Assembly (NCBI GenBank): GCA_963663275.1
Contig: OY760183.1
Span: forward strand, 1,152,001 to 1,216,000
DNA length: 64,000 nt
Source: Chloroflexota bacterium
GTDB taxonomy: Bacteria; Chloroflexota; UBA11872; VXOZ01
Reading direction: 5' to 3'
Both the position numbers and the translations under genes were made by a program. Below the pieces are notes generated by a model. That model did no database searches, had not been told where the DNA came from, and saw only the letters and a list, made by a program, of their open reading frames with translations. Shown here piece by piece: positions 31,236 through 37,500 of the stretch. Each line of letters opens with the position of its first letter. Within the stretch, counting starts at the first letter, position 1.

Positions 31236-31309
31236 CCCATGCGGTACTTGATGTCGTAGTTGATGACGAGCTCTAGCTCCTCTTCCGTGAAGCCGTCGTG
31301 TGGGGCGAG
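31236..31309 (-). repeat. Orphan copy 2 of the methyltransferase 3' end
   Basis: Translates LAPHDGFTEEELELVINYDIKYRMG vs LAEHYGITDEELDFIINYDIKYRMG at 34617-34690. Confidence 0.9.
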
Positions 31310-31445
31310 GTGCGGCTAGATGCGCTGTTGGTGGGTGGCGCACCTTTTGGCTTCCCCCAAAATCGCGTGTGCTATGCTTAACGTACACTTGTTAAGAGCG
31401 ACCACGCAAAAGAAACTGACGCTGGCACCTCACTAGGGGAGAGCC

Positions 31446-31856
31446 ATGAAGACATACAACCTATTCATCAGCCATTCCTGGCGCTATTCAGACGCATACA
31501 GTCGGCTCATCAGCCTGCTGCGAAACAGAAATTACTTCGCGTTCAAGGACTACTCTGTTCCCCAAGATGACCCGATCCACAACGCGGGCACCGATGCCCA
31601 ACTGCGCGCGGCGATCCGCAACCAAATGTCCCCCTGCCACGTTGTGCTCATTCCGGCCGGGGTCTACGCCACCTACAGCAAGTGGATCAACATTGAGATC
31701 GACTTGGCGACACGGGGATTCTTCAGTCCAAAGCCTATCCTTGCGATAAGACCCTGGGCGAGCGAGCGCACATCAGTACCTGTACAAGAAGCTGCCGATG
31801 AAGTTGTGGGGTGGAACACTGAGAGCGTCGTGAAGGCAATCCGAAGGCTTGCATGA
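31446..31856 (+). CDS. TIR-like protein (MTH538/DUF1863, ThsB-like)
   Basis: LFISHSW, DYSVP.DDP, SKWINIEI with conserved Glu, KPILAI, VGWN; RBS GGAGAG. Confidence 0.85.
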   Translation: MKTYNLFISHSWRYSDAYSRLISLLRNRNYFAFKDYSVPQDDPIHNAGTDAQLRAAIRNQMSPCHVVLIPAGVYATYSKWINIEIDLATRGFFSPKPILAIRPWASERTSVPVQEAADEVVGWNTESVVKAIRRLA

Positions 31857-32308
31857 TGGCGGATTCAGAGCACAATGAGCGCTTGGAGATCTACAAACTC
31901 CACGCCGAACTGGCCGACCGGGTGAGCCAGCGGCGGGAAGGGGCTAATCGCTTGTATGTCAGTCTGCTCGTCGGATTGGTGGTATTCCTCGCTGCGCTGC
32001 TGAGATTTGGGACGGGAGACGTTTCTGAGCAAGTCGTGCTCTGCACGATTGGGATCTTCGGCGTGCTACTCTCGGTGTCGTGGCTTGGCGTGCTTCACTC
32101 CTATCGCCAACTCAATTCAGAAAAGTTCCGCGTGTTGCACGAGTTGGAGAAGGAACTAGCCTTTCCGTTCTTTACGAAAGAGTGGGACCCGGCTGAAGAG
32201 GGGGAGAAGAGCAACCGCTACTGGCGGTTGACAAAGGTTGAACGGTCACTGCCGCTCATATTCGGCCTACTCTTCTTGGGACTTCTCGCCTATTCGTTCT
32301 TCCAGTAG
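31853..32308 (+). CDS. Small 3-TM membrane protein coupled to the TIR gene (possible pore-type effector)
   Basis: ATGA overlap; YK...ADRVSQRR..AN, two TM helices, SYRQLNSEKF.VL.ELE, LTKVE..LP, third TM helix. Confidence 0.75.
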   Translation: MMADSEHNERLEIYKLHAELADRVSQRREGANRLYVSLLVGLVVFLAALLRFGTGDVSEQVVLCTIGIFGVLLSVSWLGVLHSYRQLNSEKFRVLHELEKELAFPFFTKEWDPAEEGEKSNRYWRLTKVERSLPLIFGLLFLGLLAYSFFQ

Positions 32309-33546: not shown

Positions 33547-33552
33547 GAAGAA

Positions 33553-34581
33553 TTACAATTGCGATAACTCATCCAGGAAGTCTTGCTTCTGCCGCATCGT
33601 GAATACGCGGCAGTTGTATTCCTGATCAAGATGGGTCTGCTTAATCAATTCGGCAAAGTAACTCTCGGTGGCGAGCATGTCTGCGTATGGTAGGACTAGC
33701 GCGGTGATATGAAAGTCGGCCATTTGAGAGGGCTCAGGCTCGTCGTCATGGTAACTCAGGATATCCTTCGCTCTAAGTTTGGCGAAAATCGAGATGAATG
33801 GCGTGTTTGAAAACTGGCAAGATTCTAGGAACATCTCAATCCCGTCACCCTGATTGCAAATCCACTCCAATTCATAGTATCGGCGCAAGGCTTCCTTGCC
33901 TACTTCAGTAAAGAGAGGTTCGTATTGAGAAGTCTTGAAAAACCCTCGCTGGACAGCATCAGTCACTCCAAAGTGTAGCTCTCTGAACATTTGAACGCGG
34001 CCTAGTCTAACCGCTTCTTCATAGCTGTGCCCCTCTTTCCATACCTCGCCCTTGAACTTACGGGAAAGGGAAGTTTGGATGCCGTCTCGCGTTTGTTTCG
34101 CTTCCTTACTATACTCGACCATTATGGGATGCTCTCTGCTGCTGATATCAGGTGACTGTTGCACCGAAATGTCGGGATCCCTGTTGAAGGGGACATACCA
34201 CCAAGGAGTACGTGGTACATCCTGCCCGGCGAATTCTGAGGCCGCCGCTAGAAGCTGTTTGTGGTTGACATGAATGTATGAGTTGAATGACAAGCCACGG
34301 CTGAGCGTGCCAACGACAAAGGAAATTGGGGCGCGTAGCTTGGGACTGAATGAGGCCTCTCTATGATGAAATTCTGAAGTTGGGCAGGCGAACTTGCCAT
34401 TAGATACTCCAGTATGTAGAGCCGAGGACAGATGACTATAGAAGGCGCTATCTTTGCTGAGCCGACCGATGATCTGCGACTTTGTAATCTCGCTGATCCA
34501 GTTCTGATCGAGATAGACAATGGGTTTCTTACCGCGTCGCTGCATTAGAAGCCTCTCTTTCGTAGGCTGATCCAATTTCAA
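33553..34581 (-). CDS. Hypothetical AT-richer protein with split PIN-like motifs
   Basis: IVYLDQNWIS near N-terminus, HHRE, and ADFHI..LVLPYADMLATE near C-terminus. Confidence 0.6.
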   Translation of the reverse strand: MKLDQPTKERLLMQRRGKKPIVYLDQNWISEITKSQIIGRLSKDSAFYSHLSSALHTGVSNGKFACPTSEFHHREASFSPKLRAPISFVVGTLSRGLSFNSYIHVNHKQLLAAASEFAGQDVPRTPWWYVPFNRDPDISVQQSPDISSREHPIMVEYSKEAKQTRDGIQTSLSRKFKGEVWKEGHSYEEAVRLGRVQMFRELHFGVTDAVQRGFFKTSQYEPLFTEVGKEALRRYYELEWICNQGDGIEMFLESCQFSNTPFISIFAKLRAKDILSYHDDEPEPSQMADFHITALVLPYADMLATESYFAELIKQTHLDQEYNCRVFTMRQKQDFLDELSQL

Positions 34582-34597
34582 TGATACCCCTAAGTGG

Positions 34598-37500
34598 TCA
34601 ATTGATGTTCGTTCTTCCCATGCGGTACTTAATGTCGTAGTTGATGATGAAGTCTAGCTCTTCGTCGGTGATGCCGTAGTGCTCCGCCAAGACCTTGTCA
34701 AGCTTGTCGATTATAGCCTTGCTCTGACGGGGGAATGTCTGTTGTATTGTTAGTTTGCCTTGCTTCTTCAGTTCCGACTTAGCCTTCATGTCTTCCATCA
34801 GTTCGTGCGCTATGATTGACAGTCTCTCTAGTCGGCCAGTGTCAGCAGTATCGAACCTTATCATTCTCACTTCGCGCTGATTGAGGTTCCTGCAATCTGA
34901 GAAGCACTGCACCATCCAGGAAAACAGGGATGTATTCAGAATACCAAGCGCCCCATCTCTAATCAAAGCACTTTCGAAACAGACTTCCTTCAGTTCACTC
35001 GGCTTACGTAGCTTCCCCTTCGTATCGTAGATTGCGGGTATGAAATTGAGTATCTGGAGAAAGTGGCTAAGTTTCCTTGTGTACCAAAGGGAGTGCTGTT
35101 GTGAACTCGTTCTCGATTGTTGAGGAACCACCGGAAAACGACTAACTTTGCGGAGTATGGAAGCCTCCAAAGCATGACCAATCTTGGCAATGCCGGCGTC
35201 ATTGCTGACGCGCGTAGAGTCAATGAACGCCAAATCGTGAAAGAGGTATTGGCGGGCATCGGTGCGCCACTTGTTGTAAACCGTCGCAAATGACCTTCTG
35301 GGCCTTGCGCCCTTATCGACAAGGATGATCTGCAGCCGGTTGTGGGGCATCCCATCGAACAGTCTGCCCGGATTGTCGCTGTAACTACTAACGACCACGT
35401 TGCCTGCGTCCATCAGCAGCTTACGCAGCGAAGCGTACCCATCAGTGCACACGGCAGAGGCAGGCACAATCATGCCAAGATGCCCATTAGTTGCGAGATT
35501 GAGCGAGCGCTCCCATGTCATCGCGTAGAGATTGCCGCAAACCTCCGTTTCAAGTCCTCGTACAGAATAGTCACTCTTCACCTTGCTGTACTCCACGTAC
35601 GGTGGGTTCCCGATCACCACGTCGAAGCCGCCTTTGCTCATGATGCCGTAGAACTCGGTGAACCAGTGGAAGGGTTGGTGGCTGGCGCGCCAAGGGGTGT
35701 AGGCGGTGGGTTTGTGGGGAGCGATGCCGTACTCGGCGGCCAGGAGGCGGTCCAGTTCGTCGTCCAGGCGTTGGAGGCGGTCGCGGAGGGCCTGCTTAGC
35801 GGCGGCGGTCACCTCCCCGCCGAGCGTGGTCTGCTGCCGGCGGAACTGGTTGAAAGCCGCGCTGGCGATCTCGGCCTCTTCTTCGATGCGGGCCAGGGCG
35901 GCGCGGTCTTCATCGAACATGGCGCGGCGTTGGCCGTCCGGCGTGATAGTCATGGCTTGGCGCACGGCGTCCAGGGAGGTGAAGCCCACCAGCGTGTTGC
36001 CGGCGCGGACGTTGAAATCCACGTCCGGCAGCGGCTCGATCTGGTCGTAGCGTTCCAGTTGGGCCACCAGTTTCAGGAAGAGGCGCAGTTTGCAGATTTC
36101 CACCGCTTCTTCCATGATGTCCACGCCGTAGAGGTTGTTCAGCACGATTGACTTGAGGATGAAGTACCGCTGGCTGGGATGCTTCTCCACCTGCGCCAGG
36201 ATGCGGCGGAAGTCCCTCAGGTGCTCCGGGCTGCGCTTGCGCTCGGACCTCTCGGCGTCGTCCAGGAAGCCGCGCATCCCCTCCAGGCAGGCGGTGTAGA
36301 GCGGCTCCAGCACGTTCAGGGCGGCGAACAGGAACGCGCCGGAACCGCAGGTGGGATCCAGCACGGAGATTCCGGTGTGGGTGCGTTCGCGGTTGCCATA
36401 GAGCGCGTGCCAGAAGGCGCGCAATAGCTCCGGCCCCTCGCTCTGGGCGATGACGTCCCGGGCGAACCGCTCCACGTCCAGGTTGAGGGTGATGAGGTCG
36501 TTGACCCCGGTGACCTCGCCGGCGGCCAATTTGCCCCTGACCTCCGCGTGGCGCTGGCGGCGGGCGATGACCTCGCGCCAGGTCTCGGTGGGCAGGGCGT
36601 AGTCGTCGGGCGCGGGTTGGTTCCAGTCGCCGCGTTTGGCAACGTCGTGGATGCCGGCGGCGATTTCTTGCGGCAGGGCGTAGGCAAAGCCGCGGTCGTT
36701 GTCACCCTCACCCCGGCCCTCTCCCTCAGAGGGAGAGGGAGTGGAATTGGGAGCGGAAGTGGGAGAACCCTTGTTGGCAGTGGGAGAGGCAGAAGATTCG
36801 AGGCGGGTGGGGTTCTGGGCGTCGCGGGCGTTCCAGGTGATGCCGTGGCCGACGGCGGGGTAGATGTAGCGATCGGGATCGTCGCGCAGCATGCGCCAGA
36901 CGCCGCCGTCCTCGCCAAACGCCACCGGACACTCCCGCTTGGCGGCGTCGAAGAGGAAAGGGACGACCGTGTTGCGCGCAATGTAGCCGGTGATGTCCTC
37001 TTTGGTGTAGTACGCGCCCATCTGCTTCTGGTTGACGTACTTCTCGAAGATGTAACCCAGCACGTCGGGGTTGATCTCGTTGTCCTCCCGGTGGGGCCGC
37101 TCGTCCAGATGCCAGCGGTAGGCGTCGAAGAAGGCGAAGACCCGCTCGAAGGCGGCGTCCGGGATGGCGATGCCGGGGTTGTCGCGCTCCAGGTCGTGCA
37201 CGTCGAAGAGGCCGCCGTTCAGAAAAGGTACTCTGCCCAGCAGGGCGGTGAGTTCCGGCGCGCGCTGGGCTTCGGGCTGGCCGAGACCTTCGTGGAACAG
37301 GCGCAAGAGAAAGAGGCGGTAGAAACGGTGGAAACGCCTGCCGCCACGCGCTTCGACAGGCTCAGCGCGAACGGATTGGGAGTCAGGCTCGGCGCGAGCG
37401 GAATGGGGATCGGGAGACCCGTGGGCAGGCTCGGCGGGAGCGGATTGGGGATCGGAAGACCCTTCGGCAGGTTCGGCGCGACCGGAATTGGCCTCAGGGG

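Follow-up and report, generated by a model that had tools for sequence, protein, structure and literature searches.

We have analysed a stretch of 64,000 nt (the window; G000:C1:1152001-1216000) from the genome of a Chloroflexota bacterium, a single contig of 3.53 Mb with a G+C content of 64.3%. In it, the 3' end of a Type IIG-like DNA methylase gene, here called the tail, recurs twice among putative defence genes. The locus is bounded by TilS (44982-46673) and by a P-type ATPase (26777-28726, plus strand), and the array genes between them lie mostly on the minus strand. Read toward the ATPase, their order is two unknown genes, an HKD-SNF2 gene, a MazE/PIN pair, the methylase, p342, a two-repeat protein, a TIR gene, a TIR gene with an 8xMP gene, a VapB/PIN pair, DUF2283 genes and a SLOG gene, as follows.

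42964-43413, minus strand: unknown gene of a convergent pair upstream of the helicase gene; no family match
42462-42917, plus strand: the other unknown gene of this convergent pair, also upstream of the helicase gene; no family match
39031-42423, minus strand: HKD(PLD) nuclease-SNF2 helicase fusion, 1130 aa (Pfam PLDc_2, SNF2-rel_dom and Helicase_C; PADLOC C3a139 'HKD+Snf2', E = 3.9e-49)
38672-39067, minus strand: MazE/AbrB-type antitoxin (Pfam MazE_antitoxin)
38299-38697, minus strand: PIN toxin (Pfam PIN)
34598-38281, minus strand: Type IIG-like Eco57I-family N6-adenine methylase, 1227 aa (PADLOC PDLC03628 REase_MTase_IIG, 1184 bits; Pfam Eco57I, E = 3e-25)
34617-34690, minus strand: resident tail (tail 1), about 25 codons ahead of the five final codons and stop of the methylase
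33553-34581, minus strand: cargo 1, 'p342', a putative split PIN-like protein with a helical insert; open reading frame (ORF) of 342 aa, likely start ATG at 34545 (330 aa)
33465-33545, minus strand: orphan tail 2, 81 nt, degenerate, profile positions 73-153 of 154 (nhmmer E = 1.2e-12; tblastn E = 6e-5)
32895-33416, minus strand: cargo 2a, two-repeat protein of 173 aa with H..H/Cys motifs; internal 234-nt tandem repeat
32417-32788, minus strand: cargo 2b, ThsB-type TIR protein, 123 aa (Pfam ThsB_TIR, E = 2.7e-7)
31853-32308, plus strand: cargo 2c, 8xMP membrane protein (Pfam 8xMP, E = 1.6e-35)
31446-31856, plus strand: cargo 2c, ThsB-type TIR protein (Pfam ThsB_TIR, E = 2.9e-14)
31229-31309, minus strand: orphan tail 3, 81 nt, profile positions 73-153 of 154 (nhmmer E = 2.1e-19; tblastn E = 1.6e-7)
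30937-31140, minus strand: VapB antitoxin (Pfam VapB_antitoxin)
30542-30940, minus strand: PIN/VapC toxin (Pfam PIN)
30149-30403, minus strand: small ORF, 84 aa
29937-30152, minus strand: DUF2283 gene (Pfam DUF2283)
29495-29776, minus strand: DUF2283 gene (Pfam DUF2283)
28795-29442, minus strand: SLOG/DprA-like protein, 215 aa (Pfam DNA_processg_A, E = 6e-8)

No Rfam family was matched in 28000-44500.

The first-pass annotation of this DNA had claimed that the methylase 3' end recurs twice in the same orientation, each time without its upstream gene, and that unrelated cargo lies between the copies; this is borne out. A repeat search returned three direct copies of 65 nt (31236-31300, 33472-33536 and 34617-34681), with identities of 71% and 86% to the copy at 31236, and a DNA profile of 154 positions, built from 49 homologous gene ends and searched with nhmmer, placed the two additional copies at 31229-31309 and 33465-33545. 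When the last 60 residues of the methylase were compared with the whole genome by tblastn, three matches fell below E = 1, namely the gene end itself, 31235-31309 (E = 1.6e-7) and 33468-33542 (E = 6e-5), the next best having E = 1.2. The copies are thus confined to the locus and not scattered through the genome; all three lie within 3.5 kb and are co-oriented, with no further copies elsewhere. The full 1227-aa protein matched its own gene, the tail at 31 kb and, weakly, an unrelated methyltransferase 1.3 Mb away. Since there are no further matches to the methylase body in the genome, both additional copies stand without an upstream gene body, and we refer to such copies as orphans. Tail 2 begins 7 nt past the p342 stop codon, and tail 3 has an in-frame stop three codons upstream of its profile match. 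The cargo is as it had been described, with the PIN-like ORF, the two-repeat protein and the TIR genes, followed past the last copy by the VapB/PIN and SLOG genes.

Misassembly is unlikely to have produced these repeats, because they are just 65-81 nt long and 71-86% identical, and because the same arrangements are found in a related genome, G016, and a related locus, L038. In Logan contigs from four runs of two studies, compared with 27000-45000, none of the 15 listed joints (of 57) links tail copies. One joint, 29142->35594 in X2, represents a relative that aligns only at the conserved parts.

The methylase belongs to a conserved gene neighbourhood. With an alignment of four methylases as query we took the best 80 of 257 relatives, mostly from metagenome-assembled genomes (MAGs) of Dehalococcoidia; counts out of 81 refer to these loci plus the window. 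An HKD-SNF2 homologue lies 5' of the methylase in 77 of the 80 loci, mostly immediately adjoining, and a SLOG homologue lies 3' of it in 58. The trio is also present in G029, G043, G053 and G069, genomes of the same class as that of the window; its taxa include Dehalococcoidia, Bryobacterales, Vicinamibacterales, Binatia, Spirochaetia and other MAGs. It is common in Dehalococcoidia MAGs and found in those of other phyla as well. None of the trio proteins reached a curated NCBIfam cut-off, and PADLOC names single proteins only. HKD-SNF2, the Type IIG-like methylase and the SLOG/DprA-like protein form a widespread three-gene system that is apparently without a name. The distance from the methylase stop to SLOG varies between loci, from 58 bp (L055) up to about 6 kb (L033), and the window cargo therefore sits in a variable interval inside a conserved trio.

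Other genes of the window recur within this interval elsewhere: DUF2283 genes or small ORFs in about 10 related loci, a VapB and PIN pair in L048, and the convergent unknown pair (about 149 and 151 aa), its first gene in 40 places in 37 loci and its second in 30 loci. The convergent pair also follows an orphan tail in G006, a genome without the methylase. The MazE/PIN pair occupies the identical slot, between helicase and methylase, in L033, L087, L096, L099, L108 and G043, and this gap is a second, smaller variable slot of the system.

On alignment, the methylase consists of a conserved core, a variable target recognition domain (TRD, about 34700-35500) and a conserved tail. Several core blocks (e.g. 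residues 351-450, 701-775 and 876-900) show amino acid conservation of 0.85-0.99, and the values are 0.34-0.55 for residues 926-1175 and 0.89 for 1201-1225; DNA similarity between related methylases likewise drops out in the TRD and returns in the tail. The N-terminal 230 aa are conserved, the best stretch of the PDLC03628 match covers profile positions 396-1096 of 1100, and NPPY is present in the translation. Nuclease activity may reside in the HKD-SNF2 partner rather than in the methylase. We considered the low G+C content of the TRD and cargo (0.47-0.52) as evidence of their co-transfer and dropped it: the six related loci that were profiled, of which four have no orphan, all show TRD G+C of 0.41-0.52, and as a family-wide property it is not evidence of recent co-transfer. 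In 5 of the 80 loci (L049, L050, L068, L078 and L083) the methylase is split within the TRD or tail by insertion sequences (IS elements) of IS66, DDE_3/IS630-like or DDE_Tnp_1 type, L049 having two inverted IS66 copies.

We then counted orphan tails in the window and the 80 related loci, searching about 10 kb on each side and both strands with nhmmer. Besides 57 gene ends, there were 29 other matches (E <= 1), one of them weak and on the opposite strand, the other 28 on the methylase strand; a few were split, tandem or extended methylase ends. As orphans we kept matches with E < 1e-3, after dropping five 'long remnants' that proved to be the IS-split methylases just listed, one of two tandem methylases (L107) and one match to a gene's own end (L097). 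Twenty orphans in 18 of the 81 loci remained, all 20 on the methylase strand and past its stop, and the arrangement claimed for the window is thus found among its relatives. The loci are not all independent; the polarity of the orphans is far from chance. Orphans are 30-95 nt long, with left boundaries at profile positions 59 to 123 of 154, and every one reaches the extreme 3' end of the tail (profile position at least 148 of 154). None of the 20 contains TRD sequence, all beginning no more than 95 nt from the end of a gene that is 3.3-3.7 kb long. In 17 of the 20, an ORF of at least 40 aa begins no more than 34 nt from the orphan end, and the stop often overlaps or abuts the ATG, behind a G-rich Shine-Dalgarno-like run. 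In nine loci examined, a single same-strand ORF fills the space between the methylase stop and the first orphan, beginning at or just past that stop and ending 1-74 nt ahead of the orphan.

Among 98 genomes of the class, eight contain a total of 12 tail matches: three of these belong to frames of more than 1000 aa, one runs into a contig end and eight fall in frames of at most 153 aa. Three members of the window's genus (G006, G011 and G016) have tail remnants and no intact methylase. The sister species G016 is syntenic with the window over the whole TilS-ATPase region; the TIR cassette and an orthologue of tail 3 are present in it, and the segment 32790-43502, which runs from the two-repeat protein through the helicase, is missing. 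Tail 3 is therefore either older than the split between the two species or travelled together with the cassette, and the system was gained or lost in one piece. When 49 tails were ranked by identity to an orphan, the tail of its own locus stood anywhere from 1st to 44th, and 22nd and 34th for the window orphans (approximate coordinate mapping). This counts against local duplication, and the orphans appear instead to be older alleles. Concerted evolution of orphan and resident tail was considered and, with ranks so spread, not seen.

The order in which genes entered can be read from comparisons between loci. We clustered the first gene behind every methylase end and every orphan into families, six of which are mixed, in that the gene lies behind an orphan in one locus and behind an intact (or IS-split) methylase in another. 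A gene of about 370 aa that stands behind the methylase in L061 is found behind an orphan in L045, L081 and L098. For a gene of about 245 aa, three loci (L036, L042 and L062) have it behind the methylase and two (L070 and L076) behind an orphan, and L045 and L065 differ in the same way for a HEPN-like gene, which stands behind the methylase in the first and behind an orphan in the second. These families indicate that new genes enter beside the methylase while older ones shift away with a piece of the old end, in agreement with the accretion of cargo proposed in the first-pass annotation.

A mosaic was found in L070. Its segment 8157-12355, which holds the 3' part of the helicase and the methylase core, is closer to L036. 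The following segment, 12356-14075, which holds the TRD, the tail and a 219-aa gene, is L084-like, with identities of 0.49-0.73 against 0-0.46 to L036, and in L084 a homologous 218-aa gene stands directly behind the methylase. From 14076 the sequence is L036-like again (0.82-0.88 versus <0.1), and the L070 orphan with its next gene is 88.6% identical over 805 nt to the L036 tail with its next gene. By these alignments, the TRD and most of the tail of L070 have been replaced by a foreign TRD, tail and gene, leaving the last 67 nt of the resident. The 5' half of the L070 helicase (6383-8156) is 0.89-0.97 identical to L084, the 3' half being closer to L036, and this switch is a second recombination breakpoint inside the system. 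The mosaic is what had been claimed for the window, namely that incoming DNA replaces the TRD, brings a gene and leaves the old gene end behind. The claim goes too far for the TRD, which is not always exchanged, as L045 and L061 have the same TRD type (72% similar DNA over 2.1 kb) and differ by one cassette, the HEPN-like one.

A class-B TRD and tail, unrelated to class A, occurs at 14 methylase ends (tail profile E < 1e-10). At 10 of these 14, judged by eye, a class-A remnant of about 40 nt lies right behind the class-B stop; five of the remnants are significant by nhmmer and three more were recognized by an 18-mer motif. Six class-B ends share a common left junction with at least four different downstream genes, three of which follow class-A methylases elsewhere, and the simplest reading is that crossovers took place in the tail end or right at it. 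The class-B loci L095, L099 and G043 have other junctions, so that replacement occurred more than once. The common junction with its different downstream genes lends indirect support, the best there is, to the proposal that the conserved gene end acts as a recombination anchor, and the tail may act in this way. The scar itself marks a right-hand join that was no clean crossover in the homologous tail, and the anchor role is therefore inferred.

We believe, on balance, that the window orphans are scars of a serial displacement of the 3' end by recombination at the methylase gene of the trio. DNA from a related locus would recombine in, with the left crossover within the conserved methylase core or farther upstream. 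The incoming piece would bring a complete gene end, often with another TRD, its stop, and the gene that stood behind the methylase in the donor. The right-hand join would fall inside the last ~95 nt of the resident methylase, with loss of everything upstream of the join; the extreme end would always be retained because this stretch contains the ribosome-binding site and runs up to the start codon of the gene behind it. Every event would put one cassette beside the methylase, and older genes, headed by a truncated end, would move toward SLOG. In the window, tail 3 with VapBC and the DUF2283 genes would be oldest, the module that ends in tail 2, with the two-repeat protein and the TIR genes, would have come second, and the present TRD, tail 1 and p342 would be newest.

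Homology-facilitated illegitimate recombination is a known process, and RecA pairing has a minimal length. The right-hand join may be either illegitimate or guided by short homology with the donor's own remnant, and the short orphans could follow from both. With short homology, the resident tail would pair with the remnant behind the donor's cargo. With an illegitimate join, survivors would be filtered for a whole methylase, for the retained ribosome-binding site of the next gene and for a trimmed untranslated spacer, and the observed lengths would be the visible end of a decaying series. A tail or remnant may later serve as the right-hand homology arm for module exchange. A broader idea, which we put forward tentatively, is that the gene end, with its stop, ribosome-binding site and start junction, is a universal linker through which the trio captures defence genes singly beside the methylase, with no recombinase. 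Such an 'integron without integrase' would co-express the captured genes, and the order of its scars would be their acquisition history.

Several observations weigh against serial displacement, or limit how far it can be taken. The ORFs behind tails 2 and 3 begin 48 nt (in-frame ATG at 75) and 88 nt away, and the argument from translational coupling is therefore weak at the window locus. A 'before' state was found for neither window orphan, the genes that follow them being singletons in our clustering. The donor-like L084 is about 79% identical to L070, whose right-hand join is not resolvable to the base. A random join offers no explanation for the absence of the TRD from 20 of 20 orphans, which would call for rapid erosion together with selection for compactness of the operon, or else for a join guided by homology. 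Remnants below about 30 nt fall under the detection limit, which truncates the distribution of lengths. Many of the 80 loci come from MAGs of related organisms from similar habitats, and the events are not all independent. Finally, in the sister species G001 this chromosomal hotspot is occupied by a homologue of p342 (54% aa identity) with neither methylase nor tail. The TilS-ATPase site is thus a general hotspot in the genus, and cargo is not always accompanied by a tail.

The orphans might instead be portable leaders, the tail end having been kept as a translation-initiation region, perhaps with a promoter, and the mobile unit being the tail end plus a gene that can insert anywhere in the interval. 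The copies would then be uninformative on insertion order or TRD replacement. The ORFs close behind 17 of the 20 orphans and the G-rich run in the last codons would suit such a leader, as would G006 and G016, in which an orphan tail and genes are present and the methylase is absent from the genome. However, both flanks of the L070 replacement, the helicase and core on one side and the orphan with its downstream genes on the other, are L036-like, and just the TRD, tail and first gene are foreign; the L070 remnant therefore belongs to the resident gene. Nor did any of the three window copies contain a sigma-70-like promoter (28700-35000 has 3 sites versus 2.2 expected), with a consensus that may not fit this phylum. 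The tail codons are no better conserved than other methylase segments (top-codon frequency 0.75, versus 0.71 over the conserved columns as a whole and as much as 0.84 within core blocks), and we dropped the idea of an extra DNA-level constraint on the tail for this reason. Likewise, the G016 orthologue of tail 3 (70% identity) is no better kept than the flanking genes (75%). We regard this explanation as unlikely, and we give somewhat less credence to independent decay, in which a separate and complete tandem methylase system once stood in the place of each orphan and has lost all else by deletion. Tandem methylases do occur, in L107, and a remnant in G011 holds pieces of residues 325-400, 586-660 and 1166-1222 within 500 bp. 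Loss is also frequent: the genus is represented by 17 genomes, of which only G000 and G014, itself fragmentary, have the gene, and G006, G011 and G016 have remnants. Against such decay, all 20 orphans lack core and TRD sequence, the stretches between the tail copies of the window contain no remnants of the helicase or SLOG genes, and the L070 mosaic is a replacement.

An integron-like or island attachment-site system, in which a recombinase recognizes a site in the tail and inserts circular cassettes there, would account for direct co-oriented repeats around single-gene cassettes with the newest beside the methylase. This reading is largely refuted, and we consider it very improbable. The left boundaries of the orphans vary (profile positions 59-123), and as single-stranded DNA none of the three tail copies, on either strand, folds better than 200 shuffles of each (z -1.0 to +1.67). 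No IntI-type recombinase lies by the array, PF00589 (tyrosine recombinases) occurring in the genome twice only, at 2.62 and 2.86 Mb; PF00239 (serine recombinases) has no match in the whole genome; and no recombinase domain was found in the cargo proteins tested. The nearest recombinase genes are thus more than 1.4 Mb away, and the earlier statement that no integrase accompanies the array can be extended over that distance. Integrons are defined by IntI, an attC hairpin and a fixed crossover point. The window array resembles them in its single-gene, same-strand cassettes, parted by a repeated element, with the newest beside the platform gene. Unlike them, it has no IntI, attC hairpin or fixed point, and its repeat is a coding gene end. 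Of the term 'integron-like', then, the logic of proximal insertion survives and the machinery does not.

Serial end displacement finds its closest parallel in the orphan arrays of Rhs and contact-dependent inhibition (CDI) loci. The term 'C-terminal displacement' is used for such arrays, on which there are papers by Jackson (2009) and Poole (2011). In Rhs loci, a full-length gene is followed by co-oriented 3' fragments with accessory genes, which resemble displaced pieces; what is an orphan in one serovar belongs to the main gene of another, and recombination between main gene and orphan occurs (PMC3967940). The window has the same feature, a full-length gene and co-oriented 3' fragments each with an accessory gene, and for the genes behind the tail the six mixed families repeat the relation of orphan in one locus and main gene in another. 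The difference lies in what is kept. Rhs/CDI orphans retain the variable toxin domain with a conserved piece upstream and can be re-expressed by fusion, whereas methylase orphans have lost the TRD and keep only the conserved extreme 3' end, so that the old specificity is not restorable. In addition, Rhs/CDI accessory genes encode cognate immunity, whereas the methylase-array cargo consists of heterogeneous, unrelated defence-type genes.

TRD swapping, or 'domain movement', is described for Type I HsdS and Type IIG enzymes (PMC3077401). The methylase shares the conserved-variable-conserved layout, and L070 has a TRD from another lineage in a resident core. Classical swaps are clean, however, with no duplicate gene end or extra gene, whereas in the methylase array the piece passes the stop and brings a passenger. 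Unrelated defence genes within or beside a methylation-based system are exemplified by PrrC in EcoprrI and BrxU in a bacteriophage exclusion (BREX) island, and the passages on them describe no repeated gene-end scars and no ordered array (PMC12707154). Defence-island hotspots, for their part, are usually bounded by core genes or by tRNA/integrase anchors. At the window locus the gene sets of BREX (PglZ, BrxC) and of the defence island system associated with restriction-modification (DISARM; DrmA, DrmB) are absent, the neighbours being TilS, FadB-like, GGT and P-type ATPase genes, and the methylase and helicase score far below the NCBIfam cut-offs of the PglX, DrmMI and DrmD models (65 versus 500 and 148 versus 610 bits). 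BREX-related systems with a different gene set, including a DUF499 ATPase and others, were considered as a match for the trio and dropped, as the gene sets differ (PMC12839542). By gene content the locus is not Thoeris either: there are two ThsB-type TIR genes, one of them paired with 8xMP, and no ThsA (SIR2/STALD effector).

A literature search of limited coverage, which did not extend to supplementary files, returned no published account of gene-end scars with defence cargo behind a methylase. TRD exchange and end displacement of the Rhs/CDI type are already known; what is new is the setting, and the ordered pile-up of unrelated defence genes in a methylase system. The suggestion that the window holds an undescribed system is therefore to be narrowed: the logic is near that of Rhs/CDI orphan arrays and TRD swapping, and the array is a novel form of something known and not of an altogether new kind.

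The cargo genes are presumably defence genes expressed with the methylase. p342 has no Pfam, PADLOC or NCBIfam match and belongs to an unnamed family of 37 homologues that start at the position of ATG 34545. An AlphaFold2 model (pLDDT 90.5) gave nothing at E <= 0.001 with Foldseek against PDB. With VIA-align, PIN/VapC chains took up all of the top 13 rows, the best (Z 7.7, below 8; root-mean-square deviation 3.0; 131/135 residues) spanning model residues 7-321, which suggests a PIN fold split by a helical insert. The ESM Atlas matches of p342 are clusters without a name (0.95) and one cluster with a PIN label (0.80). In L038 a p342 relative stands directly behind the methylase and is followed by an orphan tail. 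The two-repeat protein consists of two 78-aa repeats, about 74% identical in DNA at a spacing of 234 nt; it has no Pfam, PADLOC or NCBIfam match, and the ESM Atlas offered nothing useful (0.77). L045 and L047 have relatives with a single repeat between methylase and SLOG. The TIR protein encoded at 32417-32788 is 84% identical in the syntenic locus of G016, which also keeps the TIR and 8xMP pair (76-79% aa identity). The TIR and 8xMP genes overlap (ATGA) and are a candidate two-gene defence module of TIR and membrane effector without ThsA. In other loci, Pfam assigned cargo to Schlafen/AlbA_2 (L034), to an OLD-type ATPase-TOPRIM (L093) and, weakly, to HEPN (L045), the rest being unknown.

If serial displacement is correct, a defence island can grow without mobile-element genes, through repeated displacement of the 3' end of one gene, and the scars provide a relative chronology of gene gain in which the newest gene lies nearest the methylase. 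They also provide a search key, since any gene that is enclosed by a methylase stop and an orphan tail at such a locus can be taken as a defence candidate. Cargo without a known family includes the PIN-like p342, the two-repeat H..H/Cys protein and genes of 219, 106 and 89 aa.

Some neighbouring features may be recorded here. An AAA_15/AAA_21 ATPase (563 aa) and a 160-aa partner are encoded at 24632-26780, just beyond the island; homologues of both lie directly 3' of SLOG in L048 and also in the syntenic region of G016. Two large leucine-rich-repeat proteins are encoded at 16117-19830 (1237 aa) and 55960-57804 (614 aa, with PD40 repeats). Such eukaryote-like repeat proteins fit a host-associated lifestyle, and close relatives of the island are present in two sequencing runs labelled sponge metagenome.

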